DNA of 64,000 nucleotides from Leucoraja erinacea (lineage: Eukaryota): contig NC_073387.1 in assembly GCF_028641065.1 (NCBI RefSeq), forward strand, positions 28,706,001-28,770,000. Direction: 5' to 3'. The notes under the pieces are model-generated. The model made no database searches, was not told the DNA's origin, and worked only from the letters and a program-made list of their open reading frames with translations. Numbering within the stretch: position 1 is the first letter of the stretch; each line of letters opens with the position of its first letter. Positions 197 to 45,880 of the stretch are shown piece by piece. Made by a program: the position numbers and the translations under genes.

Positions 197-1480
197 TTAT
201 ATTTCCCTTACCTCACATAATTCAATATCCTTCTCCTTGGCGAATACCGAAGAAAAGAAATTGTTCAATATCTCCCCCATCTCTTTTGTCTCAGCAGATA
301 GCTGTCCACTCTGACTCTCTAATGGACCAATTTTATCCCTCGTTATCCTTTTGCTATCAATATAGCTGTAGAAACCCTTTGGATTTACTTTCACCTTACT
401 TGCCAAAGCAACCTCATATCTTCTTTTAGCTTTTCTAATTTATTCTTAAGATTCTTTTTACATTCTTTATACTCCTCAAGCACCTCATTTACTCGATGCT
501 GTCTATAATTATTGTAGATCTCTCTCTTTTTCCAAACCAAGTGTCCAATTTCCCTTGAAAACCATGGCTCTTTCCAATTTTTATTATTTCCTTTCAACCG
601 AACAGGGACATAAAGATTCTTTACTCTTAAAATTTCACCTTTAAATGTCCTCCATTTCTCTTCCACATCTTTCCCATAAAACAAACTGTCCCAATTTACT
701 CCTTTTAAATCCTTTCGCATCTCCTCAAAGTTAGCCTTTTTCCAATCAAAAATCTCAACCCTAGGTCCAGTTCTGACCCTCTCCATAATTATATTGAAAC
801 TAATGGTATTGTGATCACTGGTTCCGAACTGTTCCCCAACGCATACCTCTGCCACCTGACCCGTCTCATTTCCTAACAGGAGGTCCAGCACCGCCCCTTC
901 TCTAGTAGGTACTTCTATGTATTGCTGCAAAAAACTATCCTGCACACATTTTACAAACTCCAACCCATCCAGCCCATTTACAGAATGTGTTTCCCAGTCT
1001 ATGTGTGGAAAATTGAAATCTCCCACAATCACTACCTTGTGCTTACTACTAATATCTGCAATCTCCTTACATATTTGCTCTTCCAATTCTCTCTCCCCAT
1101 TTGGCGGTCTATAATACACCCCTATAAGTGTTGCTACCCCTTTCCCATTTCTCAGTTCCACCCAAATAGCCTCCCTAGACGAGCCCTCTAATCTATCCTG
1201 CCAAAGCACTGCTTTAATATCTTCCCTGATAAGCAATGCAACACCTCCACCTCTTGCCCCTCCAATTCTATCACACCTGAAGAAACGAAATCCTGGAATA
1301 TTTAGTTTCCAATCACAGCCCTCCTGCAACCATGTTTCACTGATCGCCACAACATCATACTTCCAGGTGTCAATCCAGGCTCTAAGTTCATCCACCTTTC
1401 TTACAATGCTCCTAGCATTAAAATATACACATTTAAGAAACCCACCCTCTCTTATTCTCTGTTTATTTACTTTTTCTTCT
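197..1480 (-). CDS. CR1 ORF2 N-terminal half (APE endonuclease plus linker), frameshifted near 440
   Basis: YFNARSI, ISETW, GGGVAL, GVYYRPP, VGDFNFP, LDLLL, SDHN; continues in ORF 197..406 (NPKGFYSYI, LNNFFSSVF). Confidence 0.9.
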
Positions 1481-1580
1481 CTCTCCCCTACATTTTGGGT
1501 CAGAGTGTTACCATTCTCTGCCTCCTGCCTCACACACTGACTGCTAGCTTTCCCAATTTGAGTCCCTCCCCCCAACCATA

Positions 1581-2240
1581 CTAGTTTAAAGTCTCCCCAG
1601 TAGCCTTTGCAAATCTCCCCGCCAGGATATTGGTCCCCCTCGAGTTCAAGTGCAACCCGTCCTTTCTGTACAGGTCGCACCTTCCCCAAAAGAGGTCCCA
1701 ATGATCCAGAAACTTGAATCCATACCCACTGCACCAGTCCCTCATCCACTCATTTATCCTCCACCTCGCTCCATTCCTACTCTCACTGTCGCGTGGCACA
1801 GGTAGTAATCCTGAGATTCTTACCTTTGCAGTCCTTCTCCTTAACTCTCTACCTAACTCCCTAAATTCTTCTTTCAGGACCTCTTCTCTTTTTTTACCTA
1901 TGTCGTTGGTACCTATATGTACCACAAACTCAGGCTCCTCTCCCTCCCATTTCAGGATTTCTTGGACACGTTCAGACACATCCCTGCCCCTGGCACCAGG
2001 GAGGCAAACTACCATCCGAGTCTCCTGTCTGCGTCCACAGAATCGCCTATCCGACCCCCTGACTATAGAGTCCCCTATTACAATTGCCCTCCCCTTCTTT
2101 TCCTTACCCTTCTGAGCAACAGGACTGGTCTTTGTGCCAGAGGCCCAGCTGCTGTCGCTGCCCCCAGGTAGGCTGTCTCCCCCACCCTTACTCAAACATG
2201 AGTACTTATTTTCAAGGTGTACAGCCACCGGGGTACTCAC
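1581..2240 (-). CDS. CR1 ORF1, SGNH/GDSL esterase-like domain
   Basis: Motifs IGDSIVRG, CLPGA, VHIGTND and DGLHLN in an uninterrupted 219-aa ORF. Confidence 0.9.
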   Translation of the reverse strand: MSTPVAVHLENKYSCLSKGGGDSLPGGSDSSWASGTKTSPVAQKGKEKKGRAIVIGDSIVRGSDRRFCGRRQETRMVVCLPGARGRDVSERVQEILKWEGEEPEFVVHIGTNDIGKKREEVLKEEFRELGRELRRRTAKVRISGLLPVPRDSESRNGARWRINEWMRDWCSGYGFKFLDHWDLFWGRCDLYRKDGLHLNSRGTNILAGRFAKATGETLN

Positions 2241-2285
2241 CAGTCCCTGCCTCTGCCCATTGCCCTTCCTAACTGTGACCCAGTT

Positions 2286-2348
2286 TATTCAGATTCAGAT
2301 TCAGATTCAACTTTAATTGTCATTGTCAGTGTACAGTACAGAGACAAC
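2286..2348 (-). mobile_element. Short 3' end of a Rex1/L2-like non-LTR element with (GAATCT)n tail
   Basis: (attcag)n followed by actttaattgtcattgtcagtgtacagtacagag. Confidence 0.5.
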
Positions 2349-5034: not shown

Positions 5035-5735
5035 GCATGGTCGGGGTTCGGGACGGGGTCGGGGTTCGGGACGGGGTCGAGCCCGCCCCCGGCTCTCCGT
5101 AGCTGCAGGTGCTCTTGAGCTGCTGTTGGGCCGTCCCCGTCCCCTTGCCGGATTCCCGGCCCTGTCCGGAGGTGTCCGGGGTGGCCCTGGGCTGGCGGGA
5201 CGACCCCGGACCTGCAGCCATTGATCCAGCTCGGCTCTGCCTGTCCTGCCGGGTTGGCCGGCAGCCCTTCACCTCCACCCCTCTCCCCTCAGTCCGACAC
5301 CGAGATCCTGCTGAAGATGGGCAGCTGCCGGTGGGTGAAGTGGCATCGGGTACCGTAGGGTCAGATGCCGATGGTGTGCAAGGTACGTCTTGTATTTGGG
5401 GTGGCGGATGAGGGGGCACAGCTCGGGCTGTGGGCGAACTGCCACTTGTCGCCATAGCGGCCCATCGGGAAGCGGGTTCCTCTGGAATTGGAGCGGGATT
5501 GGGCTGGAGTTGGTGCTGGCTGTGGGTTTCTGGGTTCTCCGTGCTTGCAGTGGGCCTGGTGGGCCTGGTGGGCCTGGTGGGCCTGGGGGTTGGTGTCCTG
5601 TCAGTCCTGACATCTCCGGCCACCCCCCTGGGTGGGGATGGGACTCTCGAGTGGGGGGTGGAGAGGAACCGGGGGCGGTCCAGTGGCGGTTCAGCAGCGT
5701 TTGCTCTTTGTTATCACCCGATTTTTCCAGAGAGA
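5035..5735 (-). repeat. GC-rich dispersed repeat module homologous to 18.0-18.96 kb
   Basis: Shares long near-identical blocks (e.g. gcagctcgggctgtgggcgaactgccacttgtcgcc) with the interior of the 17636-19317 element. Confidence 0.85.
5289..5465 (-). pseudogene. ZFP36: Internally deleted ZFP36/TTP-family fragment (tandem CCCH finger remnants plus CNOT1-binding C-terminus)
   Basis: Across two frameshifts reads GRYGDKWQFAH / ELCPLIRHPKYKT / RTLHTIGI*PYGTRCHFTH-RQLPIFSRISVSD*; symbol denotes the family, paralog not resolved. Confidence 0.85.
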
Positions 5736-5736
5736 G

Positions 5737-5835
5737 TTAGATTTAGCTCTTAGGGCTAAAGGAATCAAGGGAAATGCGGAAAAAGCAGGAACGGGGTACT
5801 GATTTTGATGATCAGCCATGTTTCTATGTTTCTAA
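5737..5835 (+). mobile_element. CR1 3' end fragment
   Basis: ggaatcaaggg...gatgatcagccatg followed by a (tttctatg) tail. Confidence 0.7.
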
Positions 5836-7684: not shown

Positions 7685-8216
7685 TTGTGTGGAGTTTCCC
7701 TGTGACCGCGTGGGTTTCCTCCGGCCTCCGGGTCCTCCAGTTTCTTCCCACATCCCAAAGACGTGCGGGTTTGTAGATTAATCGGCCTCTGTGAAAACCC
7801 CCCCGATTGTGTAGAGAGTGGATGCGAAAGTGGGATAACATAGTACTAACTCAAACGGTTGTCAGAAGGAACTGCAGATGTTGGTTTACACTGAAGATTA
7901 ACACAAAATGCTGAAGTAACTCAGCAGGTCAGACAGCATCTCTGGAGAAAAGGAATAGGTGACGTTTTGGACGGAGACCCTTCTTCAGACTGAAAGTCAG
8001 GGGAGAGGGAAACTAGAGGTACGTCTAGTTTTTCTCTCCCCTGACTCAATCTGAAGAAGGATCTCAACCCAAAATGTTACCTAATCCTTTTCTCCAGAGA
8101 TGCTGCCTGACCTATTGAGTTCCTCCAGCATTTTGTGTCTATCTTTAGTGTGAACTGGTGATCGATGGTAAGCATGGAGTGGTGGGCTGAAGGGTCTGTT
8201 TCCATGCTGTATCTCA
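7685..8216 (+). mobile_element. V-SINE/HE1-like SINE with CR1-derived tail, interrupted by an inverted pair of Penelope termini (7866-8145)
   Basis: tgtggagttt...cgtgggtttcctccgg...cccacatcccaaagacgtgcggg core and gggtctgtttccatgctgtatctc tail. Confidence 0.75.
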
Positions 8217-9261
8217 AAAAAGAACAACGGTTCACCTGCTAGCTAACTATACATCTAATTGTAGGTTTAACCTTCAATTTGAGTAAGAACCAGTCTTTAA
8301 ATTACTTCTAATGAATGTATTGATATTTGCAAGCAGTGAGTACTGACATTACAAATTACAGCTGTGTAAACAGGGAATGTTGTCAATTATAACATTAAAT
8401 GAAAATCAAAAAAAAAAAATGAATGCTGAAAAACTGAAATCAAAGTAGAAAGTGCAGGAAACGCTCAACAGGTTAGGAAACGTTTGTAAAGTGCAAGAGA
8501 TTTGATCATTTCAGAGTTGAAAACCCTTCATCAGGATTCTTTTATAATAGCACTGAAATGTTACACAGCAGACAGTCACTCACTACCATAAGAAAAATCA
8601 ATTTTGGTGAAATTGGGTTTAGTGCTTTCAAACATTTCTGAAAATCATGTGTAATGGATTAAATCGGCTGAAAACTGGCTTCTGTAATGATTTGCATCTG
8701 AGCCTGATTTCAAATGCTCTAGCCTTTCCTTTAATATTCATATCTTAGGCTCCACCATCAATGAGGTAGCTGATGCTGTGAGATCTGTGGCAGCAGATCT
8801 TTGAGCTAATTCATGTTTTGCCCTGTCCGTTGCACGCTGCTCTTGCTGATGAACACTCCTGTGCAATCATCTCATGGTGTTGCAGCTTCATCCAGGTTAT
8901 CTCCTTCTGCAACTCTGATGGATCCAAAGTTGATCTCCTGGCTTGATTTTAATGGTACAGTAAGGAATATGTTGGATCAGTGGGTTTTAGATTGTGGAAA
9001 AGTACATTTCTGCTGCTAATGCATTTCCACAATGTCTCATAAATGCTGAGCGTTGAGATCTGTACCAAGTCTATTTCATGTAGCAGTATGAGAATGCCAT
9101 ACAATGTGATGGATGGTGTCCCCAATGTAAAATGTGACTTCATCTCCGTAATGACCAATGCTATCAGATTGACTGGTAACAATGAGTTTATCCTTTATGT
9201 TGGATTCCTTAGGGCCAGTCCTTCAGTTCCTAGCCAACTTAACCAACATTAGTGTTCCTAA

Positions 9262-9487
9262 TGCCCCTGTCCCACTGAGGAAACCTGAACGGAAACCTCT
9301 GGAGACTTTGCGTCCCACCCAAGGTTTCCATGTGGTTCCCGGAGGTTTTTTTCTGTCTCCCTACCTGCTTCCACTACCTGCAACCTCCGGCAACCACCTG
9401 CAACCTCTGGGAACCACACGGAAACCTTGGGTGGGGCGCAAAGTCTCCAGAGGTTTCCGCTCAGATTTCCTAATTGAGCCAGGGGCA
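9262..9487. mobile_element. PIF/Harbinger-like MITE
   Basis: Almost wholly palindromic; termini TGCCCCTG...CAGGGGCA; TAA TSD at 9259-9261 and 9488-9490. Confidence 0.85.
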
Positions 9488-9492
9488 TAAGG

Positions 9493-10532
9493 TAGGTATG
9501 TTACAATACTTACCTTCAGCGGTGTTGCAATTCTGCCACTGGCTGTGCGCACAATTTTGGCGCGTTTGAGGGGGGGCGGGGTTAAAACGCATTTTTTTCC
9601 GACCTGGTCCTGGATTATATTTGTTGGAGTGCAAGATGTTGCTAAAGAATCGATCCAACGGCCGTTCTGTGTGTTTTTGCCCGACAAGTTAATCGCTGGA
9701 GTGATTTTAAAATCAGCTTCTGAAGCCGTCAATGCCGACAACGGGGCCGGATTTTATGTAGGGGACAAGTAAAAGAAAGTGGTTTATTTTTACGTGTAAA
9801 AGTGTTTCTTAAGATGATTTTAATTCACATTTTAATTTGTGAAACGGTGAATTTTTTCCCCCCGAAGAACCGGCAGCGTATTTGCTGCCGATATAGGGAC
9901 TAAAATCATCGCAACCTCAACATTCCAAATGGTCGCATTCCAGAAAATTCGACAGGCAAGTTGATTTAAATGGCCATTAATTTACAGGTATTAAACATTA
10001 AATTCCTTCCATTTGGCCTATAAACCCATGACAATGAGATTTAAAAATTATGTTATACCTGTATTCTGAATTCTTGTGTGAATGTTATTTGGACACTTAA
10101 GCTATTTAAAAATGTTAATCTATTCTTAAGAAATGGATAGATGTTTAGATCTAGTAATTGAATTTTGTAATTAGCTACACTTAGGTAACTAACTGATTGT
10201 ATGCTTTAATTTCAAGTAATGTAAGTAAGATTGTTTCATATTTGTTTCAGAATGCCTCAATCTATAATAACTGAAAATCTATTCCAGTTCTCTTAAATTT
10301 TAAGAAAGTTATGGCCTTTTAAATGTTCTCGATCACAGCTTTTGTGTTAAGTCAATGAAAAAGCAATAGGGAACAAGATGTCAATTTCCGAGTATGAAAA
10401 TGGCCATAACTTTTTTAATACTGAAGATATGAAAGTGAATTAGGTGTCAAATTAAACTTCTTTTTATGCTTTATCTGATGGGATAAATTAAAGACTTGAT
10501 TTTTTAAATCTCAAAACGTTGTAACATTGCTA
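9493..10532. mobile_element. Non-autonomous DNA transposon, superfamily uncertain (hAT-like TAG...CTA ends)
   Basis: TIR TAGGTATGTTACAA / TTGTAACATTGCTA; flanking CATAAGG direct repeat; related copy at ~43700-44750. Confidence 0.75.
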
Positions 10533-11419
10533 CATAAGGCACTCGTGGTGATGGACAGTGAAGCCTCCACACAGGGTGGATTCTTATTACTTTCAGTGAG
10601 TCTTTCAAGGTTTATTCAACATAGAGAAGACAGATTCAACCACAGATGGAGGATGGTAGGTGAAAATATGGATGTTTTCTTTCCCTTAGCTATTTGCTTT
10701 GATCTGTATTCCATCATGCTTCCACCTCCAATGGGTCTGTCCTACAGGTGCCATAGTTCGCAATCGGGTATTGTGATGGAGCAGTCTGGCATATTATCTG
10801 TAAGGTGTGGTTCTGTGAATTCCCAGCTCTATTCAATGGGACAAGCTCTCCTGAACTTTGTGAGGTGAACTATTTAAGGCTAAACTAGGCTGAGAGCGAC
10901 TTTATCATGTTTGATGCTTAAGTTGAAGCTGGACAGATTTATCTTCTGCTGTTTTAATGTAGCAGCTATGATACAACTAATATACAACTAATGTGATCTC
11001 ACCTAACATAAATTTACATTTCTAGTGTGGGAAAAAGCCTTTTTTTCTGAACAGACCACAGAGCCCATGCTGAATATCAACAGCAACCTACAAAATCTAA
11101 TTTTACTCCCTCAATATCCAGGTGGTCACTGATCACAACAGCAAGAATTTTATCATGCTAAATGTCAGGTGGCCTGGGTAATCAAATGACTTATTTGTTC
11201 TTATGGAGTCTTCATTGCCTGACATTCTTTAGTGGATAGCTCTGTTTTATGAGATTGGCCTTGAGGGACAAAGGTACCCACCTTTCTGGACAACAGTGCA
11301 CAATCCTATACTCCAGCTGTGTGCACCATTGTGGCAGCTGTAGTCCTACAAGGACATTAATGGAGAAAACTAACAACCTGCTAAAAGTTGAATTGAAACA
11401 GCCTTTTCAGTTGGAGGGT

Positions 11420-16089: not shown

Positions 16090-16256
16090 CGGAGCGGAGT
16101 CAGGGGATATGGGGAGAAGGCAGGACCGGGGTACTGATTGGGGATGATCAGCCATGATCACATTGAATGGTGATACTGGCTCGAAGGGCCGAATGGCCTA
16201 CTCCTGCACCTATTGCTATTGTCTATTGTCTATTGTCTATTGTCTATTGTCTATTG
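16090..16256 (+). mobile_element. CR1 3' end with (CTATTGT)n tail
   Basis: gatcagccatgatcacattgaatgg...gggccgaatggcctactcctgcacc. Confidence 0.85.
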
Positions 16257-16519: not shown

Positions 16520-17310
16520 GGAGTCATAGATTTATAGTCTTACAGCATAAAAACAGGCCTTTCGGCCCAAACTGCCCACACCCGCAAACATGTCCCATCT
16601 ATACTAGTCCTATCTGCCTACATTTGCCCCTTATCCCTCTAAACTTGCCCTATCGATGTACCTTTCTAAATGTAGCAATAATACCTGCCTCAACTATCTC
16701 CCTGAGCAGCTCATTTCATATACCCACCACTCTTTCAGTCAAAATTTACCCCTCAGGTAAGGGCCTGTCCCACTTGGGCGTCATTTGCACGTCATGCAGG
16801 TGACGCGCAAAGATTTTGTGAATCCCAAAATCCTGAGGCGCGACCGCGCATTACTGCTTACATCACCACGCACCATGCACGCTTAATGGACACCACGCGT
16901 GTGTAATAATGCACACCATACGCACGCGTCATGCGTCGTGACGTGTAAATGATGTTGCGCAAATGACGTGCAAATGATGTCCAAGTGGGACAGACCCTGT
17001 ACCCATTAAATCTTTCACACCACACCTTAAACCTATGTCCTCTGGTTCTTGATTCCCCTCCACTGGGCAAGAGACTCTGCATCTTCTCGATCTATTCCTC
17101 TCATGATTTTGTACCACCTCTATACGATCACCTCTCATCCTCCTGCACTCCAAGGAATAGAGTCCTAGCCTGCTCAACCTCTCCCTATTGCTCAGTCCCA
17201 CGAGTCCTGGCAACAATCTCGCAAATATTCTCTGCTCCCTTTACAGTTTGACAACATCTTTCCTATAACATGGTACCCAGAACTGAACACAATACTATAA
17301 ATGTGGCCTC
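16520..17310 (-). mobile_element. CR1 3' fragment interrupted by a MITE
   Basis: ORFs read RERLSRLGLYSLECRRMRGD and ESRTRGHRFKV. Confidence 0.85.
16760..16998. mobile_element. PIF/Harbinger-like MITE
   Basis: TIR AGGGCCTGTCCCACTTGG / CCAAGTGGGACAGACCCT; 3-bp TSD GTA. Confidence 0.8.
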
Positions 17311-18183
17311 ATATTTGCATATTTGTGCACTGCTAGAAATCAATGAAGAGCAAGCAAAGATGAATAATCTAATTATCCGCTCTATTGCCAGGGGTATCAA
17401 AACCAACATTCACTGAAATTGATTAATTGGTATTGGTATTGGTTTATTATTGTCACGTGAACCAAGATAGAGTGAAAAACTTTGTCTGCAGGCTAAACAG
17501 TCAAAACATATTATACATGAGGACAATCAAGCCATACCCCTACATTCTTATCCAAAAAGTATTAACTTGTATTTATCAGGATTAAATTCCATCACCCAAT
17601 ATAAGTACAATAAATGCATGACCATCTATCTAATACAGGTGCACAACCTTTGACCCGAAATTCCAAATAACGAAAAGCTCCGAATAGCGGACATTTTTTC
17701 GGTCCTTGAAGTAAGGTCCTTGCAGAGGTGACAGCGGAACCTCCGGTCGGTCCACGAAGAAAGGGGAACTAAATCCCCATTCATAAAAGAGAAGGTGAGG
17801 GTATATTGCACGGGAGGGTTAATAATTGACAATCTGCTGCTGCCTGCCCGCTGAGTTAATAGGTTCCCACGGTAGACTCACGATACACATCGTGAGTCTT
17901 GCCGTGGGAACTTTTTAACTCAGCGGGCAGGCAGCAGCAGATTGTCGCTCCCTTCAGTTTCACCCCACCTACACCCCTCTCCTCCCCATCTCCCCGCCCA
18001 TTGCACCGGCGCGGAGGCTTTGCACTGTCTTCACGTCGGCGATGCCAGCAGGTCAGTGCCAGTCACCGGAGACGTCAGGACCAACGGGACACCGACCCCC
18101 AGGCCCACTGCAAGCACGGAGATCCCAGAGACCCACAGCCAGCAGCAGCCCAGCCCCGTTCCAACTCCAGAGGAACACGCTCC

Positions 18184-18919
18184 CCGTAGGGACAGAAGCT
18201 GATGGTGTGCAAGGTTCGTCTTGTTCTTGGGGTTGCGGATGAGGGGGTGCAGCTCGGGCTGTGACGTCTCCGGCCACCCCCCTGTACAGGAGCTGAGACT
18301 GGGAACTGTACCGCCCTTGCAGGAGAGTGGGGTTGTTTGCAGTTGCAGAGGGAGGGGGCAAGGGCGGTACAGTTCCCAGTCTCAGCTCCTGTCCAGGGGG
18401 GTGGCCAGAGACGTCAGGACCAATGGGACACCGACTGCAAGCACGGAGATCCCAGAGACTCACAGCCAGCAGCAACTCTAGCCCAGCCCCGCTGCAACTC
18501 CAGAGGAACCCAGGTGGCGGATGAGGGGGCGCAGCTCGGGCTGTGGGCAAACTGCCACGTCGCTGTAGCGGCCCATTGGGGAGCGGGTTCCTGTTGGTCC
18601 TGACGTCTCTGGCCACCCCCCTGGACAGGAGCTGAGGGACCTCAGGACCACCAGAAGCCGCTCCCCGATGGGCCGCTACGGCGACAAGTGGCAGTTCGCC
18701 CACAGCCCGAGCTGCGCCCCCTCATTGGGACACCGACCCCCAGGCCCACTGCAAGCACGGAGATCCCAGATCAGCGACTCCAACCCAGCCCCGCTCCAAC
18801 TCCAGAGGAACACGCTCCCCGTAGGGGCAGAAGCTGATGGTGTGCAAGGTAAGTCTTGTTCTTGGGGTGGCGCAGCTCGGGCTGTGGGCGAACTGCCACT
18901 TGTCGCCGTAGCGGCCCAT
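18184..18919. pseudogene. ZFP36: Four scrambled ZFP36-family zinc-finger fragments in both orientations
   Basis: MGRYGDKWQFAH (+18668; -18919), HTISFCPYG (- ~18184 and ~18819), ELRPLIRH (- ~18513); symbol denotes the family. Confidence 0.8.
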
Positions 18920-19149
18920 CGGGGAGCGGATTCCTCTGGAGTTGGAGGGACAGGGAGACACAGTGGCTTTTGAGAATGGAGGGCAATCACTTCCAAAGTT
19001 CTGCCCACACAGTCAGTACACCTCTCCTACACTTGTCTCCCGCACTAAGATCATCTCGCAGAGAATGATCCCAGCCTAACCCTCCCTATTCTCTCCTATT
19101 CTGCAAGAAAAAACTACATTGAAGACTCAAACTCGCGATCGAGTAACTG

Positions 19150-19216
19150 CCGGGATCGAGGCGCAAACTCGCAACCTTGCGGATATGAGCCGAGCACTCT
19201 ACCACTGAGCCAGCCG
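19150..19216 (-). other. tRNA-Met(CAT)-like sequence or SINE head inside the TIR element
   Basis: GCTC-AGTGGTA-GAGT D arm, CGG-CTCATAT-CCG anticodon arm, CGAG-TTTGCGC-CTCG T arm; no good acceptor stem. Confidence 0.5.
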
Positions 19217-19436
19217 TTAAAATCTACGCTAAAAATCTTCCATTCCGAAAGCCGAAAAATTCCGAATTACGAAAAGTGTCTGGTCCCAAGGCTTTCGGAT
19301 AAAAGGTTGTGCACCTGTACAAGATGAACAAATATTATTATTTTTTAAACACAAAATGTTTGACTAACTCAGCAGGGATCAAGCAGCATCTCTGGAGGAC
19401 ATCGATAGATGACATTTTGGGTCAGGACTCTTCCTT

Positions 19437-19752
19437 AGATAGATATAGATATGCCATTTATTGTCACTATACATGTACAGTGAAACTGAAAGCTGCTCGT
19501 ACTCAGTGCATACATACAATTTTAAAACAAAAAACAAGAAAAAGAAAAACAAAAGAGAAGGGAGATGGGGGGGGGGGAATAGGTGCACAAATTCTACGGC
19601 GCTACATACATATATACATATATACAGATGGAAGTCCGTGTTGGGCGGTGTAGTCAGTGCATGTGTGGATTTGAATTTATGGTAGATATAATTCTCGGGA
19701 AGCAGCTATTCCTGAGTCTGTTTGTCCTGGATTTGATGCACCTATAGCGCCT
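19437..19752 (-). mobile_element. Rex1-like non-LTR 3' end
   Basis: Minus strand RRYRCIKSRTNRLRNSCFPR, then gtgacaataaa and an (atatct)n tail. Confidence 0.65.
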
Positions 19753-23252: not shown

Positions 23253-23432
23253 NNNNNNNNNNNNNNNNNNNNNNNNNNNNNNNNNNNNNNNNNNNNNNNN
23301 NNNNNNNNNNNNNNNNNNNNNNNNNNNNNNNNNNNNNNNNNNNNNNNNNNNNNNNNNNNNNNNNNNNNNNNNNNNNNNNNNNNNNNNNNNNNNNNNNNNN
23401 NNNNNNNNNNNNNNNNNNNNNNNNNNNNNNNN
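23253..23432. other. Assembly gap (180 N)
   Basis: Run of n. Confidence 1.
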
Positions 23433-24624
23433 AGACAAACATGATTGTATTTTTTTTCCTGAAGAATACTAACTGCTTAATCTTTTCAAAATAGTTAGGG
23501 GATGTAGCGAATGTTAATTGTACTGCAATTATATCTGGGATCAGCTAACTCACAAGAATCTTTAATTTTGTCCTTTCAATTATCACTTTGGTTGAATTAG
23601 CTCTTTGAAGTTGGCAAGTAAAATTAATGTGTTTATACCCGGCTGACTGTGGAAAAGCGTGGAAGGATGAGATGGAGTTTCCATAGAGTCAGAGTGGGAA
23701 CAAGGGCACAATATTCATCTGCCCATTGCATTCTCTTTGCAATGATATTCCGAGTGCAAAGACAAAGGACAGTTAGATAGACCTGGTGGACTAAAGTCAC
23801 AACTCAAACATTGGGCTCAGATTGGAATGGGTTGGCTTGGTACTTGTCGGGAGTGATAGGGGTGGTTGGAAAATGGATAATCTTTAACTTGGATCAAAAG
23901 TGCTGGAAATACTCAGCAAGTTAGGCAGCACCAGTAGAGAACAAAACAAAGTTAAAATATCAGGTTGATGACAGTTGGATATGAACATTTCAAAAATAAC
24001 CTGCCTTTGAAAAGGGATGCATCTTATATTCTTAGCTATCGATACACTGAATTTCCTTGTGCTGTTGAACATCAAAAATGGGATGGCATTATGACATTTA
24101 TATGTGCCTATCACTAAATATTTTTATGGCAAAGAAATTAGTTTGGTTGTTGGGGGGTGGGGGGAGGAACAAGAATAGGGTTGGTGGATTTTAGATATTG
24201 CTGCAATGTCGGCTGAGATGAAGCAAAGATTTTACTTCGGAGTCACGTGAGTGACTACGTGAAGAACCCCGCCAGGATGCATGCGTGTCATATCACTACA
24301 CGCATTGCAACGAGTCACAGCAGGGGGAAAGACCTTAGCGGCAGAATTTGAAAGCCGGGAACAGCAGGTAAGGAGACCCTGCGTTCCTTCCACTTACCTT
24401 ACAGGTGGAGACATGGACCAGATCCGTGAAGGCTGCGAAAAAGCTGGCGGGGGAGAACCGCGGAGTTGCGGGCAGCCAGCAGCAGCAGCCAACGGCACGC
24501 CAATCTCCCGAAATGGGAACAGCTATGCCCGACTTCGCTCCCGCACCGGCCACGGCCGGTCGGTAGAGCAAAGCAAAAAACGAACAGAGTCGTTGACTCC
24601 GATGAGTCCGACTCTGAATAGCCA

Positions 24625-24955
24625 CGAGCGGCCAGTGCCCGTGAGCATTGGAGCCGGTTGGAGCGGCTGGGAGCGGGGAACAAGAGCAGCCGCGACGGCC
24701 AGTGCCCGTGAGCATTGGAGCCGGTTGGAGCGGCTGCAGGAGCAACTTCAGGAGCAGCCGCGATGGCCAGTGCCCATGAGCATTGGAGCCGGTTGGAGCG
24801 GCTGCAGGAACTGAAGCAGGAGCGACTTCAGGAGCAGCCGCGACGGCCAGTGCCCGTGAGCATTGGAGCCGGTTGGAGCAGGTGCAGGAACTGGAGCAGC
24901 CACGAGTGGCCAGTGCCCGAGAGCATTGGAGCCAGTTGGAGCGGCTGTTGGAGCA
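24625..24955 (+). repeat. About five tandem ~60-75 bp repeats in the DIRS gag region
   Basis: Repeated ggccagtgcccgtgagcattggagccggttggagcggctg. Confidence 0.9.
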
Positions 24956-26039
24956 AGTACTCCAAAGTGACAGGCTCCGGGAGATGAAGACTAGTCACAG
25001 TGGGCAGCTAGTAAATCCAACAGCAGTACCTCTTGTAGGGCTGCACAGTGTTTCTCCCTCATCAGAGGGGAGTACAGGGGGTCAATTCTGGGCCGACCCT
25101 GAAGAGGGGTGCAGAACATACCCCTAGTGCACATGGGGTGCAAGAAAACCTATTGGATATGGTGCCCCAGTTTAATCAACCTGACCAAACTGGCCAAAAT
25201 TGGAACCTAAAATAGCTGCAAGTATCGACTACTTGTCATTCAACCAACTATAAGGACAGGCATTATTGGACACCACAGCAAGACACTTACCACCAGGGAA
25301 CTGCAAAACACTGAATGTTCCCAGTGTCAACCAGTGTATTTGAAAACATGTCGGAGCCTCAATCAGGGACTTGAAACTACCGAAAGTTCTGAAAGTCCTA
25401 ACAGCGGGAATTATGGTTTTCGCCCGCACAATAAACAGAAAAGACATGACGCAAGATCACCAGGATGCACTGGCTTTATTTTGCAACTACCAATACGAGT
25501 AAACAGCATTAGGAAGAAGTGCCATCCAACCGGCTTTAGACCCTAATTTGCATGCCTATGCAAACCTGGAACCTCCAAACCACCAATATTACTATTTGGA
25601 GGCAACTTATCAAAACAGGTAAAAGAACTTGACGAAGAGGGTAAAACCCTGGGGCTCATTAAAGCAACGTCTAAAAACTACTTCGGCCAGGAAAAAGCAC
25701 CCCAGTCGGCCAAAACAAACTGGTGAAAGCTCAAAGGCCAGGAACACTCAACATCGGTCTTTTTAAGCCATGGCCCAGGCTTCCTGGGGAATGCGCTAAC
25801 CCTCAACACTGATCCAACTACAGATCCAGACACCGGCGCCTCAATGTCCACGGAGGATGCCGAGAAAGTAACAAACCTACCAATAGTAACCATGGAGGTA
25901 GGTGGGTCTAGTTCCTTACGAGGTTGGTGGGAGATTACAATTCTATCTGGATGCATGGAATAAATTAACTACCAATACTTATATTTTCAGAAGTATAGGG
26001 TTATACCATAGAATTTATACAAAAACATAATCCTCCAGA

Positions 26040-27480
26040 TCAGCATGTACCAACCTGAATGTTCATGCTTACAGGCAAAGAAAAATCAAAAGTGCATGCT
26101 GAACTACAGTGGCCATATAAAAAGGGAGTAACGGAGGAAACCCAACACGAATCACAGGAATTTGAGTCCAAAATCTTTATCATAAACAAGATGGTGGTTG
26201 CCGCATTATCATAGATTTGACTAATTTTAATACTTTCGTACTGTATATTCATTACTAGATGGAAACCTTTGTTACTGCTAAGCAATTGATTTCCTAGGTT
26301 ACTACATGGCAAGCATCGTTTTAAAAGATGCTTACTATACAGTACCCATTAGATGTGACCACAGATGTTATTTAACACAATGGATCATCTGGGGTTCACC
26401 CTTAACTCAGTTCTCAGTGACTTTGCCGAAAGAAAAGGTTACAGCCTTCATGGAGACTTGCAGCAAAATCATTGACATCACAAAACCATCCATCAGACTG
26501 GTAGCAAGAATAATTGGCATTATAGTGGCTGCGTTTCCAGCCACACAAATCGGACCTTTACATTATCAAAAATTACAGAGGGCTAAAATACGAGCACTCA
26601 AAAAATTATGGTGGTCATTTTGACAGACCAATGAAGCTACCAACAAAGGCCATAATGGAGCTAAAATGATGGAAAGATAACATTAGGCATTGTTCCAATC
26701 CAAACATTATCAGCTACCCGTTTATGGAACTACAAACTGATGCCAGTGCACTTGGATGGGGTGCTACCAATTCCATCTCCAGCTGTGGGGGAGATGGAAT
26801 GCACAGGAAGCATCATTATTACAAACACTGGCATATTCATAAACTACCTGGGAATGTTAAGTGCATTCCATGGCCTTAAGTCATATTGTTCTGGGTTATA
26901 TCACCAGCATGTTAGACTACAAATTGACAACACCACCGTGGTAGCATATATCACCCATATGGGTGGAAACAAATCGACATTATGTGACAATCTGACCAAC
27001 ACAATTTGGCAATAGTGTAGCCAGAGAGAGATATTTGGATATCAGCTACCTACTTACCAGGTAAACTAAATTTAGTGGCAGACAACAGGTCACGCAAATT
27101 CAATGAAAACACTGAATGGATGTTGGATAAAAATGTATTTGCTGAAATTACAGCATGGTATGGAACACCAGATATCGATCTAGTCGCATCCAGGCTCACA
27201 CCAGCTATCGAATTATGTTCATGGGAACCAGAACCTGGGACAGTGGCAACAGATGCTTTTTCGCTGCATTGGGGGATTGTTTATTTATGCATTTCGCATT
27301 TATGCATTCCCTCCTTTCTGCCTCATCAGTCGGGTATTTAGGAATATACAGCAAGACTCCGCGTCTGGTATTTTGATAGTACCCGATTGGCCTACTCAAT
27401 CATGGGTCCCGGTGATACTCGACATGGTATTAGAACCATGCATCACCATCCATCATAGACCTAATTTACTGGTTCATCCC
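26040..27480 (+). pseudogene. DIRS pol remnants: RT (LKDAYYTVPI), RNase H (TDAS..GWG, IDNTTVVAYI..MGG, ADNRSR) and methyltransferase-like domain (DIDLVASR, YAFPPF, PDWPTQSW)
   Basis: Motifs spread over several frameshifted ORFs. Confidence 0.85.
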
Positions 27481-27575
27481 GCAATAAGGGATGGGAAGTA
27501 CTGTCACAACAATAAACATTACCCACAGATCTAAGAACATCCCGTCTGTTCTGGAATTCCTGGCAAGCCTCCATT

Positions 27576-28286
27576 ATGATGAGAGGCTCAGTCATAGTGC
27601 CATCAACTGTGCCAGAAGTGCTCTGTCAACATACCTGTGGCAAGGAACAGAGCGGCATTCTGTTGGGACACACCCTGGTAACCAAACTCATGAGGGGCAT
27701 TTTTAATGTTAATCCCCCAAGAACCAGGTACTCCCAAATATGGGATGTGAGCATTGTACTGACCATGTTAAGAAACTGGTCTCCAGCTACAGCTCTGTCC
27801 CTACAGAAACTGACTATGAAAACAGTCATGCTGATGGCCTTGGTCACGGCACAAAGGGTCCAGTCACTACAGAAACTAAGGCTGGACAACATGACTATTT
27901 CATCTGGAAATTTAACTTTTCACATCAATGAATTAGTCAAACAAAACAGACAGGGGTCAGCAGGCCTAAAAACAGAATTCAGGGCCTATCCGACAGATGA
28001 TCGTCTCTGTATTGCAACACACTTACTATTATATATGGAGTATACTAAGATCATCAGAGGGAAAGAATTGTCACTTTTAATCAGCTACAAACAGCCACTC
28101 AAAACAGTGACAGTCCAGACCATCTCTAGATGGCTAAAACAGGTCCTAATAAATGCTGGAGTAGACACTAGCATTTTAAAATCTCACTCCACCAGGGCTG
28201 CAGCTACATCGGCAGCTATGAAGTTGGATGTTCCTATGAACCAAATCCTCAAAACAGCAGGATGGTCAACGGAGAAAACTTTCTAA
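27576..28286 (+). CDS. DIRS tyrosine recombinase, prematurely terminated
   Basis: LVTAQRVQSL, TISRWLK, HSTRAAATS, AGWSTEKTF; stop precedes the expected catalytic Tyr (next codons RFYNKP). Confidence 0.9.
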   Translation: MMRGSVIVPSTVPEVLCQHTCGKEQSGILLGHTLVTKLMRGIFNVNPPRTRYSQIWDVSIVLTMLRNWSPATALSLQKLTMKTVMLMALVTAQRVQSLQKLRLDNMTISSGNLTFHINELVKQNRQGSAGLKTEFRAYPTDDRLCIATHLLLYMEYTKIIRGKELSLLISYKQPLKTVTVQTISRWLKQVLINAGVDTSILKSHSTRAAATSAAMKLDVPMNQILKTAGWSTEKTF

Positions 28287-31200
28287 CGATTTTATAACAA
28301 ACCAGTCATTGAACCTGGAACATTTGCAGAAACAATTTTAAGTTCTGTAATATAATTTACCCCATAAATAGGGGCTATAATTTGGTGTTAATATATTTAT
28401 CGTTGGATTTTCAATATTGAATTGATGTCTAATGATGTTAACACTATTCTCCCCATAATCAAGGCAGATGTGATGCATGGACTCGTTTCCACGGCATGAA
28501 ATCACAGAGCTTTAAAATCTTCACGTAGTCACTCACGTGGCTCCGACGTAAAATAGTAAGATTAAACGAGAACTTACCAGTTTGAAGTTTGATCGTTATT
28601 TTATGAGGAGTAACGTTGAGGGATTATGTGCCCTCCGCTCCCACCCTTGATCATATACTCAACTGGTATCTCTTCTCTAATCTTACTATGTTTAGTCATT
28701 ACAGTTATCTGTGATTTCACACCGCTGCTTTGAAGAATGACACGCATGCATCCTGGCGGGGTTCTTCACGTAATCCCTCAACGTTACTCCTCATAAAATA
28801 ACGATCAAACTTCAAACTGGTAAGTTCTCATTTAATCTTACTATTTACAGCCCATTCACCAGCAAAGACAATACAGATTTTCCAGCCACTATTGCTATTG
28901 CAATTTTCTTTGCATGATTGACTTAGTGAAATGCCAGTACATTTGGAAGTCAATCCATTCTCTTGGGCTATAATGATGTTTATTCCATGTACATATATAT
29001 AAATCTGGAGTGAGATTATGACTGATCTGATTGTTAAGCTCAGTTCCAGAAATCTACCTACCTATCTACCTAACTTCACCTGGTAGCCTTTCACCCCACC
29101 TGCTTATCAAGAATTTTTCTACCCAAGCCTTAAAAATATTCGAAGGCTGCATTCAAATCATTTGAGGAATTGAGCCACGACCCACTGCCTTAAGTGAGTG
29201 AACCCTTATTTTCAAACAATAACTCCCCATTGTACATTTTCACACAGGAGAACAAAGAGAACCTGTTGCTCCCCTCAATATAAAATTAATTCTTGACAGA
29301 ATCACTCCAATTGGTATTTCAGCATTTTGTGTCTACCTTCAATTTAAACCAGCATCTGCAGTTCTTTCCTAAACCAATTGGTATTTAATTGATCACATTG
29401 AATGGCAATGCTGGCTCGAAGGGCCGAATGGCCTACTCCTGCACCTATTGTCTTTTGTCTATTGAAAGTAATATTTTACTTTTATTATGGAATTCTAAGG
29501 ACTATGAGACTTATTCATCTGGATGCAATTGTATCAGACAATGAGGAAAGTCTTTGTCCCAGAGTGGAATTAAACATGAATGAACATAGGTTACTTACAA
29601 GATATGGCACTTAGTAATTTCCCTGACTGATAAAAAACAAACGTGGAAAGTAAAAAAGTAGGCTCTTTTCTGACAGTCATTCAGTAGTAGTAGTCTCATT
29701 TCTCTCTTGCTGTCTATCCTAGAATGAACAGACAGAGCACCCTATATGTTGTTTGTGGCTAGAAAGCTGACATTCCAAATATTTTTAATAATTGTCCAAG
29801 ATTATTTAGGTTTCCAAAAATGGTTCATAACAACATAAGAAATGAAGGAGTAAGCCCTGCAGAAAGACATTTTCCTTACCTTATTTCTAAATGGCTCATT
29901 GCCTAAAATGGGCAAATATCCTCTTGTTGGAGGGATCAGTGTTTCAGCATCTTCCCTCGGCATCAACATTCTTATCTTTCTTACTATTACTGTATATTTC
30001 AAGCTCTTTGCAATGAAGTTCTCATACTTTTTGCCTCTCTAATTGTTCACTCAATCTGCATGTTTGCCTCTCACATCTCATCATTTAGTTATTAGTACAT
30101 AAAGATTTATTCCAAACTAATATTTACTAGTTTCTCACTATTTAAAATGTATTCTGTTTTTTCCATTTGGCCTACTAAAGTGAAAATCCCCAGATTATCC
30201 AACGTTATATTTAATTTATCTTCTTGTTCACTGGTTTAATCTCTCTGGGTCTCTTTGTAGACTATTTCTGTCCTCATTAGCTTAATACCATAAGTAAATT
30301 TGAATACGTTACAATCTGTCTTTTCACTTGTGGTTTATATCAAATGTGAATAGCTGACGCTGGGATTTTGATGTTTGTGGCACCTTATTAGAAGTAATAA
30401 TACATTCTGTTTATTCCTGTTCCTATCTTTTCACAACTCTCCATGTTTATACATGGCCAGGTCCATGAGTCCTTTGGTTATACAAATGTTTGCTGTGTTA
30501 CCTAATCAAATGCTTTTTGAAAATCCAAATATATTTCAAGCACTGATTCTTGCATTTCTCCCTCCTTCTTAGCAATCGTTTGGGGGCGAGAATGACTTGC
30601 TTCCAGTCCTGTCGGAATACCAACTCATAAACTATACACATGTGCCCCATCAGATATCCTCCCGCCTCTGCTGTGGCCATTGTAGGATTCAGAAACTAAA
30701 ACAGATGGAGCAAGAGGTGCTTGATGGGGCAGGTATGTGGATAGTTATGAGGTGTATGCTCCTTTCACCATTAATCCTGGACTTCTGTGTTCCCCCAATG
30801 GAACCAAAGGTCTCAATGTCATCCTGAATGCTTCTTCTCCACTTTGAGCGTCAATGGCCAGTATTCCCAGGAGTCAGCGAGGCCATTGCAATTTACCAAG
30901 GATACTTTGAGTATATCTTTAAATAATTTCCTTTCTAAACCAGAATATTACTTACTATTGCAGCCTTTAGAATGGCGTACAGGCAATCCTTACATTGCAG
31001 GAGTTGGTTATATTCCGAGAAAATGGCAGAACTGGCATAAAGAGCTTGGACAGCTCAAAATGTGTTAAATGTGAGCAGGGAGGCTTATTTAATGAATATA
31101 TAGAGAGACCTATTGGAGAGGACTCAAAACTAGACCTCTTCTAAGAATCAAAGGAGACCAAGTGACTGAAGCGTCAGGTGGGAGCAGGTTGGTGCTCCAG

Positions 31201-31732: not shown

Positions 31733-32529
31733 CTAGACTAAGTGGGACCTGTTGGGTCCCAGTCACATGGGAGGCTTGGTCCCCCAACGCAACCCATTCC
31801 CCAATGCAATATTCCACCATTCACTCGTCCCTCCAATGCAACCCATTCCCACGCTGCAATATTCCACCACTCACCCATAGCCCCTAACTGTGCAGGCACG
31901 GCTCTTTCCACCTCATCCCCCAGCACTCCCTCCCCCTCCTCTTTATGTGTGGGAGGGGAGGGGAGGGGGGGGGAAGGGGAATGTGGAGTGGGAGGGGGGG
32001 GGGGGTGGGGGGGGGGTGTAGGAGGGGAGGAGAGCGTGATGTGGGGGGGACAGAGGGGTGTAGGGGGGGGGGGGGGTGGCAGAGGTATGTGGGGTAGGAG
32101 GGAAGGTGTGCATGTGTTGTGACTATTGTTGCAGCCGGGGAGGGGGGCGGCTGCAGACGGGGGCTGGTGGGGGAAGGGGGAGCATTCTTCATCTGGGTGA
32201 GGGGGACGGCTTCAGGCGGGGCTGTTGGGGGCTGATGGGGAGGGGGGCTGCACTGTTGGTGCCTACCACTGTAGGATGCTCCCCCCGGCCCTCGACAGCC
32301 CCCTCCTGAAGCCTCCCCCTCCCCAACTGCAGGATGCTCCCTCCCCCACCGATCCCCGCCTAAAGCCGTCCCATCCCGTCCCCAATTGCAGGACGCTGAG
32401 TAACAGTGAGTAAGGTGGCGAAAAATCGTAGTGCTATCGTGTACCGTTTTTGCGCAAATGTAAATACAACGCAAACCAGAAGAGGACAAGATGAGAGTTT
32501 TAGTTACGTATAGAAGAAGAAGAAGAAGA
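31733..32529 (-). mobile_element. Non-autonomous Helitron-like element
   Basis: Minus strand begins A|TC(TTC)n and ends with hairpin GGGACC-CAACA-GGTCCC, 7 nt, then CTAG; no TSD. Confidence 0.65.
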
Positions 32530-34689: not shown

Positions 34690-36992
34690 AGGATATGTAT
34701 GTCCCCATTAGAGTGAAGGCAAAGCAGGCAAACACAAGGAAGCTTGGCTGACGAGGGAAATTGAGGCATTGGTCAAAAACAAGAAGGATGCATGGGACAG
34801 GTATAGGCAGCTAGGATCAAGTTCCTGGGAAGGAGTTTTGGGAACTAAAGGACCTGTCCCACTGTACGAGCAAATTCAAGAGTTCTCCCGAGTTTCCCCC
34901 GATTCAAACTCGGAGAATTACGGTAATAGCCGCTCGTAGGTACTCGGGCTCTCGTGGACATTTTTCAACATGTTGAAAAATCTTCATGAGTCTTCACGAG
35001 TTTACCGCGTTTCCCGAGTACCTGCCGTTAGCGTTACGAGCCGCTAAGAGACGTCCCGAGCCCCGACGTACCCGCTACGTACATTCTACTTGCTTACCAC
35101 GAGTTTGATTTTTTTTTTAATTCAGGAGAGCTCTTGAATTACCTCGTACAGTGGGACAGGCCCTTAAAGACTAAACTGAAAAAGGAGATCAGAAGGGCAA
35201 AAAGGGGCCAGGAGATAGCTCTGGTGGGTACCTTTAAGGACAGTCCAAAAATATATTATAAATACATAAGGCGGGAAAGGGTAACAAGAGAGAAAGTGGG
35301 ACCTCTCAGGAATCAAAGCAGTCGCCTCTGTGTGGAGCCACAGGAGATGGGCAAGGTCCTCAATTAGTATTTCTCTTCTGTATTTACTGAGGAGAAAGAC
35401 TGTAGGATGGAGAAACTTGGGGCAGTCAATGGAAGTACTGAAGGTACTATTATGTATGAAGGTAAACAAATCTCCAGGGGCTGATCAAATATATCTGAGG
35501 ACATTGAGGGAAACCAGAGAGGAAATTGTTGGAGCCCTGGTTGAAATTTATGAGTAGTCCTTAAATACAGGAGAGATGCCGGAAGACTGGAGGGTGGCAA
35601 ATGGTGTGCCTCTTTCCAAGAAGGGCTGCAGGGAAAATGCTGGGAACCATAGGCCGATGAGCTTAACATCTGTAGTTGGAAAGTTACTAGAGAATATTCT
35701 GAGGGATAGGTTATACAGGCATTTGGACGGGCAAGGGCTGATTATGGTTAGTCAGCATGATTTTGTACGTGGGAGGTCGTGTGTCACAAATATGATTGAT
35801 TTTTTTGAAGACGTGACCAAAAGGTTTGATGAGGACTGAGCTGCAGATTATGGATTTCAGTAAAGCATTTGACAAGATTCCGCATGGTAGACTGCTCTGG
35901 AAGGTTAGATTGCATGGGATCCAAGGCGAGACAGCTGAAAATATAGCAAATTGGCCCCATGGAAGGAAGCAGAGGGTGATGGTGGAAGGTTGCTTCTCTG
36001 ACTGGAAGCCTGTGACTAGTGGTGTGCCTTAGGGTTCGGTGCTGGTCCCATTACTGTTTGTCATCTACATCAATGATTTGGATGAGAACATACAGGGCAA
36101 GATTAGCAAGTTTGCTGATGAAAAGTGGGGGGTTGTGCAGATAGTGAAGATGGTTGTGGAAGATTGCAGCAGAATCTGGATCGATTGGCCAGGTGGGCTG
36201 AGGAATGGTTGATGGAATTTAACACAGAAAAGTGTGAGGTGTTGCATTTTGGGATGTCTAACAAGGGCAAGACCTACACAGTGAATGGTATGCCTCTGGG
36301 GAGTGTTGCAGAACAGAGGGATCTAGCAGTGCAGGTGCATGGTTCTTTGAAGGTTGAGTCACAGGTAGATAAGGTGGTCTAAAAGGTTTTTGGCACGTTA
36401 GGATTCATCAGTCAGAATATTGAGTATAGAAGTTGGGAGGTCATGTTGCTGTTGTATAAGACATTGGTGAGACCGTATTTAGAACATTGTGTTCAGTTCT
36501 GGGCACCATATTATAGGAAAGATATTGTCAAGCTTGAAAGGGTTCAGAGAAGATTTATGAGGATGTTGCCAGGACTAGAGGATGTGAGCTATAGGGAGAG
36601 GTCTCTATTCCTTGAGGGGTGATCTTATAGAGGTGTATAAAATCATGAAAGGAATAGATCAGGTCGATGCACAGTCTCTTGCCCAGAGTAGGGGAATCGA
36701 GGACCGGAGGACATAGGTTCATGGTGAAGGGGAAAATATTGAATAGAATCTGAGGGGTAACTTGTTCACACAAAGGGTGATGGGTGTATGAAACAAACTG
36801 CCAGATGAGGTAGTTAAAGCTGGGACTATCCCAACATTTATGAAACAGTTAGACAATAACATGGATTGAACAGGTTTGGAGGGATATGGACCAAGCGCGG
36901 GCAGGTGGGACTAGTGTAGCTGGGACATGTTGGCCGGTGTGGGCAAGTTGGGCCGAAGGGCCTGCTTCCACACTGTATCACTCCATGACTCT
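34690..36992 (+). mobile_element. 5'-truncated CR1 LINE (decayed ORF2 RT region plus 3' UTR)
   Basis: PEDWRVAN, HRPMSLTSVVGKLLE, MDFSKAFDKIPH, VTSGVP*GSVL, KFAD; stops and frameshifts. Confidence 0.95.
34849..35164. mobile_element. PIF/Harbinger-like MITE nested in CR1
   Basis: TIR AGGACCTGTCCCACTGTACGAG / CTCGTACAGTGGGACAGGCCCT; TAA TSD. Confidence 0.85.
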
Positions 36993-43699: not shown

Positions 43700-44750
43700 A
43701 CGCTTCCCGAACTATCCTCTGTTTATACCGAAATAAGTTAATAATCAGCGTGGTCAGATTTTCCTAAAGGAGGGAGTGAAACAGTCTTGTAAAAAAAAAG
43801 GTGGCACGGTCCTGTCCAGTCAGCGTCGTGGCAGCTCCACGAAATGTTCAGCCTAGTAAATCATTAACGGAAAATTGCTGAAAGACCCCGTCGCAAAAGG
43901 TATTATTAGTTTTTATGGCCTTGTATAATAGTTATAATAGTTTAAAAATCACTCTCTAAACCCGAGACCTCTCGCAGCTCCAGGGTTTTATAAAGCAAAC
44001 AATTAAAGGTATGTACCTTATTTTTACATTAAAAGGGGCTTCTTAAGAACCCTGTTAATAAAGTTTTCTATAGCGAGTAGCTCATTTTGGGCTCTTTATA
44101 TCCCGCAGTGTTTTTCTGGGCATTTGAGGGCACAAATCCAGCACAATATGAACGTTCTAAAACAGCGCGTTCGCAGGAACCCACTAGAAAGCCGATTTAA
44201 AATAGACTTTAATTTACAGCAATTGATCACTAAATTCCTTCCATTTGGCCTATAAATTAATGTAAATGAGATTTAAAAATCATGTTTTATAGTGAATTAT
44301 TTGTGAATATTATTTGGACACTTAGGGTATTTAAAAATGTTAATCATTTATTAAGAAATGTTTAGACCTAGTAATTGAAGTTTGAAATTAGCTACAATTG
44401 GGTAACTAACTAATTATATGCTTTAATTTCAGGTCATCCAAGTAAGATTATTTTATATTTGTTTCAGGATGCTTCAATCTATGATAACTGAAAATTTCAT
44501 TCAGTTCTCTTAATTTTTAAGAAGGTTATGGGCTTTTGACTGTCCATGATCACAGCTTTTTTGTTATGTCCATAGAAAATCAATAGGGAACAAGATGCTA
44601 ATTTCCAAGTATGAAAATGGCCATAACTTTTTTTATTACTTGAGATATGAAAGTGAATTAGGTGTCAAATTAAACTTATTGTTATGCTTTATCTGATGGG
44701 ATAAATTGCAGACTTGATTTTTTAAATCTCAAAATTTTGTAACATTGCTA
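43700..44750. mobile_element. Second, diverged copy of the 9493-10532 DNA element (right end intact)
   Basis: ~44200-44750 closely matches ~9960-10533 and ends ttgtaacattgcta. Confidence 0.8.
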
Positions 44751-45699: not shown

Positions 45700-45880
45700 A
45701 ACAACTGCAGATGCTGGTTTAAATCGAAGATAGACACAAAATAATGGAGTAACTCAGCCGGACAGGCAGCACCTCTGGAGAGAAGGAATGGGTGACGTTC
45801 CGGGTCGGAACATCACCCATTCCTTCTCTCCAGAGATGCTGCTTGTCCCACTGAGTTACTCCAGCATTTTGTGTCTTTCT
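45700..45880. mobile_element. Fold-back pair of Penelope termini
   Basis: Near-perfect inverted repeat centred at ~45803. Confidence 0.75.

Follow-up and report, generated by a model that had tools for sequence, protein, structure and literature searches.

Anatomy of the element

The window, meaning the whole 64-kb stretch of DNA analysed here (64,000 bases), consists of repeat-rich animal DNA (42% G+C, CpG observed/expected 0.40) in which remnants of LINE-, tyrosine-recombinase- and LTR-type retroelements are present. At 17636-19317 it holds an element of 1,682 bp that ends in TIRs and has a TA directly outside both ends (Table 1). An 18-mer composed of TA and TIR occurs twice in the 64,000 bases at up to three mismatches, both times exactly, compared with 0.10 occurrences expected, and a count of two was matched by one of 100 shuffles; by this search the window contains a single copy of the element. 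A Pfam family scan of the element's open frames found no transposase family, and none of the 150 open frames scanned in the window, out of 305, gave a transposase matching the element. An earlier note on this DNA had described 1.68 kb without transposase, enclosed by TIRs and TA, and this description holds: the TIRs are identical at 23 of 25 positions, TA stands on both sides and no transposase family is present. From the TIRs and TA flanks we infer a non-autonomous Tc1/mariner-type DNA transposon, for whose movement a transposase from another locus would have acted in trans.

Two hairpins lie within the element. Hairpin 1, already reported with its length of 119 bp, is strongly folded (z = -19.4, with none of 200 shuffles equally stable) and, as far as compared, is not derived from ZFP36. 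Hairpin 2 has z = -12.9 (0/200 shuffles equally stable), and its arm sequence adjoins the 5' edge of the repeated unit described below three times. None of the matches between the element hairpins and Rfam miRNA families reaches the cut-off; they reflect the shape of the stems. Near the right end, the segment on the minus strand that had been called tRNA-like is now only a lead: it scores 16.1 bits against Rfam tRNA (cut-off 29, E = 0.9), and ARAGORN called no tRNA in 18948-19317 at thresholds of 90, 85 and 80, at which 4, 15 and 42 of 200 shuffles were called. Neither search gave a cloverleaf above threshold, and a tRNA gene or tRNA-derived head at this position is not supported.

Table 1. 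Features of the element, its cargo and the related copy at 5.3 kb (window positions).
Feature	Position	Strand	Details or basis
G+C-rich stretch (73%) beyond the stop of the 5.3-kb copy	5039..5288		18-bp tandem repeat
Second, unshuffled copy of the unit	5289..5631	-	upstream part (private 9-bp tandem expansion), finger-1 half, linker, finger 2 with stop, C-terminal motif, stop
Repeat tail beside the 5.3-kb copy	5761..5820	+	also 16096-16156, there running into a (CTATTGT)n end
Left TA, presumably a target-site duplication	17634..17635		sequence
Left TIR	17636..17660	+	outer 16 bp perfect, 23/25 overall
Hairpin 1, 119 bp	17828..17946		arms differ at 3/57 positions plus 1 gap
S1, GC-rich upstream part of unit, ZFP36 sense	18066..18191	+
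S2, antisense, linker plus initial part of finger 2	18184..18263	-	8-nt microhomology overlap with S1
S3, 5' edge of unit, antisense	18262..18285	-
Hairpin 2	18286..18392		arms 35 bp perfect (57/59 with flanks)
S4, upstream part, sense	18393..18511	+
S5, second half of finger 1 and linker start, antisense	18513..18592	-	private 2-nt deletion
S6, 5' edge of unit and 12 nt of hairpin-2 arm, antisense	18593..18636	-
S7, second half of finger 1, sense	18654..18725	+
S8, upstream part, sense	18726..18826	+	junction to finger 2 same as S1/S2
S9, finger-1 half, shortened linker, finger-2 start, antisense	18819..18947	-	1RGO match E = 8.6e-4
Weak tRNA-like segment with a CAU anticodon loop and a broken acceptor stem	19148..19214	-	below every threshold
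Right subterminal region and TIR	19231..19317	-	weak Rfam mir-1290 match
Right TA	19318..19319		sequence

The cargo consists mostly of nine pieces of one unit

The cargo, at 18066-18947 (882 bp), is made up mostly of a single unit of about 280 bp (279 bp), which is found again at 5353-5631; from its location at position 5.3 kb of the window we refer to the latter as the 5.3-kb copy. Nine cargo pieces together give 706 positions aligned to 5353-5631, five of the pieces representing the GC-rich upstream part of the unit and four bearing finger sequence. The finger remnants S2, S5, S7 and S9 align to 5353-5493 at 84-94%, confirming the positions at which four ZFP36 finger fragments had been noted in both orientations. 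The GC-rich blocks had been described as interleaved with these fragments. Since the upstream part and the fingers are contiguous at 5.3 kb, however, the blocks belong to the captured unit itself, and blocks and fingers are one unit. This membership had been missed by the earlier note, as had hairpin 2 and a C-terminal motif in the 5.3-kb copy.

An exact correspondence links S7 and S9, in which 18658-18718 is the reverse complement of 18869-18929 over all 61 bp. Short template overlaps are seen at four of six junction positions examined, and two of these four are the same inversion junction (judged by eye, with no chance test). Because one inversion junction is present twice, the rearrangement took place in more than one step. 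An assembly artefact as the source of the cargo repeats was ruled out, the internal copies diverging by 5.6%. Elsewhere in the element body, 17966-17982 is identical at 16 of 17 positions to 5270-5286, just past the stop of the 5.3-kb copy (E = 0.044, low complexity); this match may be a tenth cargo piece or may be due to chance.

ZFP36 homology and shared lesions

The account given in the earlier note depended on the cargo aligning to ZFP36 paralogs. It does align: the 5.3-kb copy matches PDB 1RGO (ZFP36L2) at E = 1.7e-6 and TTP (1M9O) at E = 0.0038, and the element piece 18818-18919 matches 1RGO at E = 8.6e-4. The likeness to these ZFP36/TIS11 proteins comprises the second half of finger 1, the RHPKYKT linker and finger 2. 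A frame covering the linker gave E = 0.16, its top three matches all being tandem-finger proteins. Pfam zf-CCCH was matched by one of three proteins at E = 0.087, which is below cut-off, and by none of the five cargo frames of the element. In the 5.3-kb copy only, finger 2 is fused straight to the C-terminal, CNOT1-binding motif of ZFP36 proteins, RQLPIFSRISVSD, followed by a stop (5289-5330, minus strand), with the intervening coding region gone. By eye, this motif is near the C-terminal peptides RRLPIFSRLSISD of TIS11b (PMC5170607) and PRRLPIFNRISVSE of TTP (PMC9476947); a PDB search with the C-terminal piece alone yielded nothing significant. This makes the 5.3-kb copy a compressed relic of ZFP36-family coding sequence.

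Compared with 1RGO, deletions have taken 4 nt after finger 1 and 11 nt, with the loss of ELCR, from the 5.3-kb copy; it also shows a C-to-W change, and the first half of finger 1 is absent. Both deletions and the C-to-W change are common to all element pieces that cover those sites, so the shared loss of ELC and the shared C-to-W change noticed before are real, the ELCR codons being lost in both. Likewise, a Cys that had been said to be replaced by a stop at 5.3 kb is encoded by TGT or TGC in the element and reads TGA in the 5.3-kb copy. Unlike ZFP36/TIS11 proteins, these sequences contain no intact CCCH finger, carry frameshifts and are devoid of the region between finger 2 and the C-terminal motif, and they are not assignable to one paralog. 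Owing to frameshifts, lost cysteines and the stop, no two intact CCCH fingers occur in one frame; the element encodes no working zinc finger.

As these lesions are common to the 5.3-kb copy and the element, the immediate donor was already broken and pseudogene-like. The single capture proposed earlier thus stands in so far as the shared lesions point to one ZFP36-family piece, but the immediate donor was a copy already frameshifted and internally deleted. On this evidence the cargo reads as re-used pseudogene debris and not as a capture from an intact gene. A separate capture of each fragment straight from intact ZFP36 genes is hardly credible: the element does keep ancestral Cys, Phe and Arg codons that are lost at 5.3 kb, but all covering copies have the same 4-nt and 11-nt deletions and the same C-to-W change, and independent captures would not share these lesions.

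Relationship between the copies

Pieces within the element differ from one another at 40 of 716 positions in pairwise comparison (5.6%). Set against the 5.3-kb copy they show 67 differences in 706 positions (9.5%), which corresponds to a cargo identity to that copy of 90.5% pooled and 86.6-95.6% by piece. In 17 of the 245 columns covered by at least two pieces, all element pieces agree against the 5.3-kb copy, whereas 6.9 such columns would be expected if the pieces had been made with this copy as their donor (Poisson P = 0.0008, an optimistic value because repeat pairs have pieces in common). Five of the 17 shared differences represent CpG decay at 5.3 kb and one CpG decay in the element; two, polarised against 1RGO, are derived states of the element (Y to N and G to S). 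These Tyr and Gly codons are kept at 5.3 kb and changed in both covering element pieces, and the Cys, Phe and Arg codons mentioned above show the opposite pattern. Neither locus, in its present state, is the parent of the other; since each keeps ancestral states lost by the other, the lineages at 5.3 kb and in the element have split.

Divergence is even across the eight internal repeat pairs (34/639, P = 0.68), although the counts are not independent, so that this P value too is optimistic, and the test has low power. Hairpin 1 (3/57) is as diverged as the cargo repeat pairs (31/582), a comparison to be read with the proviso that arms may be homogenised by conversion. Because the pieces are nearer to each other than to the 5.3-kb copy, and because hairpin 1 and the cargo are equally diverged, insertion of the element as a finished unit is favoured.

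The location of the 5.3-kb copy, 12.4 kb from the element, points the other way. A distance of about 12 kb favours a one-off local capture, in which a cargo-free element at this TA broke, the gap was filled, independently of transposition, from the ancestor of the 5.3-kb copy and the filling was later reshuffled in place, with no family arising. Such a course of events is possible, though we consider it doubtful. A donor-like copy 12.4 kb away fits the cis bias of single-copy Pack-TIRs in the animal survey (PMC8277862), where the parent is no more than 15 kb away for 160 of 281 Pack-TIRs, most cases are single-copy and junction microhomology is present as it is here. Moreover, with five of the 17 shared differences due to CpG decay at 5.3 kb, that copy may have aged fast. 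Nevertheless, local capture requires a long interval between capture and reshuffling to yield 17 shared differences in 245 columns; the cargo is about three times as long as the donor, the donor has none of the flank that the unit has in the element, and hairpin 1 in the element body is not older than the cargo repeats.

The surroundings of the 5.3-kb copy bear on a further alternative, namely that other means, for example a LINE-tailed retroposed RNA, dispersed the compressed ZFP36 unit as a repeat in its own right, of which the element took up any one of many copies. Neither the element's TIRs nor a degenerate TIR pair was found near or around the 5.3-kb copy, which also lacks the 5' flank of the unit, including the hairpin-2 arm sequence, as seen in the element. 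The G+C-rich stretch past its stop matched no Pfam family and nothing convincing elsewhere in the 64-kb window. On the other side, the match to a repeat tail, which we take to be the 3' end of a CR1-type LINE, begins 130 bp from the unit. A G+C-rich composite without TIRs that adjoins a repeat 3' tail would suit a dispersed repeat, and a high-copy unit would account for two diverged copies in one window. We nonetheless regard this origin as improbable: no target duplication or poly(A) was seen around 5039-5835, the ZFP36 sequence is antisense to the tail, and the tail may be an independent insertion.

Proposed origin of the element

The best explanation, which we hold with modest confidence, is that the element inserted as a finished unit, probably belongs to the pogo/Tigger group, was shuffled from a compressed ZFP36 copy and is thus a member of a multi-copy family. 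A ZFP36-family gene first gave rise to a compressed, frameshifted copy, as the lesions common to all copies show. This copy then split into the 5.3-kb lineage and the element lineage, each of which kept its own ancestral states. A part of about 280 bp would next have entered the element and been copied into nine pieces, in more than one step because one inversion junction is present twice; given the junction pattern, the likely route is repeated template switching guided by microhomology, either in gap repair or while hairpin-rich DNA was replicated. Finally, the finished element would have inserted at its present TA and decayed by about 2.7% per copy. Given insertion as a finished element, a multi-copy family with the same cargo is most likely.

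The strongest point against insertion as a finished unit is the 12.4-kb proximity of the 5.3-kb copy, because finding two independent copies in the same window would require copies to be numerous. The single element copy in the window and the failure of protein-set searches to return a second one also count against it. Word-index protein searches for other copies or the parent gave no scored match among 74, 1,886 and 17 candidates (in the last, linker rows were misplaced in the query alignment), HMMER returned no match for the frame 18056-18721 (minus strand) among 1.84 billion representatives, and an Atlas search with the frame 18569-18970 (plus strand) produced no usable match; such sets are poor tests for non-coding eukaryotic repeats, which makes these negatives weak.

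Comparison with known elements

The right end of the element matches Rfam mir-1290 at 13.9 bits (E = 5.9, cut-off 82), and the left end gave no match to this family. Both ends presumably resemble those of Tigger4/Zombi, given their TA flanks, short TIRs starting CAG and repeated subterminal motifs. Unlike Tigger4/Zombi, the element has no transposase remnant and its interior is replaced by hairpins and cargo. In the literature, mir-1290 is listed as TcMar-Tigger-derived (PMC9502224, PMC10136691), and Zombi is equated with Tigger4, a Mariner element (PMC5753468). A literature search found nothing linking mir-1290 with Tigger4 and, by title, nothing relevant on skates and Tigger. Assignment of the element to Tigger/pogo is a weak lead.

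Capture of sequence by TIR elements is established in animals. A survey by Tan et al. (2021, PMC8277862) reports 370 Pack-TIR cases, among them 115 Tc1/mariner and two Tigger4 elements; multi-copy gene-capturing elements are rare there, with four cases, and elephant shark, the only shark row of its species table, has 0. We found no report of ZFP36 capture, or of a ZFP36 pseudogene-transposon in cartilaginous fish, in a literature search that lay outside Repbase, Dfam, subscription journals and bioRxiv supplements. Term searches likewise found no ZFP36 entry in 12 supplementary files of PMC8277862 and no mention of ZFP36, TIS11 or CCCH in PMC3597677. The repeat may thus be on record already, as a consensus without a name.

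Like animal Pack-TIRs, the element carries non-TE sequence between TIRs, has no transposase, shows junction microhomology and lies less than 15 kb from a related sequence. By the criteria of PMC8277862, Pack-TIRs have 100-5,000 bp of internal sequence, at least 90% identity to the parent, 80-120% of the parental length, a unique non-TE parent and no TE within 100 bp. The 882-bp cargo in a 1,682-bp element falls within the first range. Identity, measured on the 5.3-kb copy in place of the true gene, lies close to the second value when pooled (90.5%) and on both sides of it by piece (86.6-95.6%). By length, however, 882 bp of cargo from a 279-bp unit lies outside 80-120%, and the element is therefore not a Pack-TIR by this filter. 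Pack-TIRs of the survey are single near-full-length copies of a unique parent, whereas here nine pieces of a broken unit of about 280 bp stand in both orientations. Plant Pack-MULE and Pack-TYPE elements, including Pack-Mariner with its TA duplications, are likewise TIR elements of the non-autonomous kind, in which coding DNA is captured and shuffled (Gisby and Catoni 2022, PMC8903248). By definition, these plant elements form repeated clusters with host-gene cargo; the present element, by contrast, is an animal element with one copy in the window and pseudogene debris as cargo. It is a Pack-TIR-like variant in a vertebrate, in which one broken ZFP36 piece was multiplied and inverted, and a function is unlikely. 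A family with serially rearranged cargo, if true, would record template-switch events stepwise and could be dated across related species. Such pieces also call for caution in annotation, as they give false ZFP36 matches.

Regulatory potential of the cargo

Folding of the cargo RNA gave z = -18.4, with none of 20 shuffles equally stable, and the perfect 61-bp stem between S7 and S9 is mostly finger-1 sequence. The earlier idea that sense and antisense pieces could form dsRNA homologous to ZFP36 mRNA is structurally possible in view of this fold and stem, but the lesions would limit perfect identity between the stem and a parent mRNA to about 19 nt, assuming that the parent had Cys at two finger-1 sites. 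It is very unlikely that the cargo has been kept because small RNAs directed at ZFP36-family mRNAs would arise from the hairpins of its transcript. If one mismatch is allowed, the match to a parent mRNA could extend over about 32 nt, and sense/antisense regulation has been suggested for Pack-TIRs (PMC8277862), but the cargo stems are no better conserved than hairpin 1, any inverted duplication folds in this manner, and the window has at least six further elements with inverted repeats. Furthermore, no host exon was found among the 150 scanned of 305 open frames of at least 62 aa, a scan that would miss short exons.

The element most likely does nothing for the host. We give very little credence to the proposal of a multi-copy Tigger-like family in cartilaginous fish whose ZFP36 hairpins feed piRNA or siRNA acting in trans on ZFP36-family mRNAs. 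Its weaker form, in which a multi-copy Pack family of a vertebrate carries ZFP36 cargo that was reshuffled repeatedly and serves no function, we consider somewhat more probable than its opposite. ZFP36 proteins control the decay of AU-rich mRNAs, and a regulatory role, if true, would matter far more.

Other repeats in the window

Five of the 150 scanned frames have a Pfam match, two of them retroelement-like and three below cut-off or unrelated-looking. The 5' part of a LINE, presumably CR1-type, lies at 394-2288 (minus strand); in it an endonuclease frame comes after an SGNH/GDSL esterase frame. A broken DIRS-like retroelement at 24229-28846 has a tyrosine recombinase frame (27516-28283), inverted and internal complementary end repeats, and a 68/80-bp tandem array at 24620-24956. 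At 54504-57858 (minus strand), a broken Gypsy-like LTR retrotransposon with reverse transcriptase and integrase frames is accompanied by direct repeats (54722-54812 and 57699-57790) and by (ATATT)n arrays at both ends.

Other short elements, at 9257-9492, 16756-17003, 32144-32372 and 34848-35165, have inverted ends or are palindromes over their whole length; three of the four share a similar end motif, and two, with arms differing at 10/91 and 6/47 positions, look older than the element with ZFP36 cargo. A common dispersed repeat of about 95 bp forms head-to-head hairpins at 7884-8155 and 45724-45884, and a further copy flanks the ZFP36-cargo element at 19346-19443. The window also contains an assembly gap of 180 N at 23253-23432, adjoining an (AGG)n tract, and a 570-bp direct repeat, the copies of which, at 9963-10533 and 44194-44751, are 85% identical.
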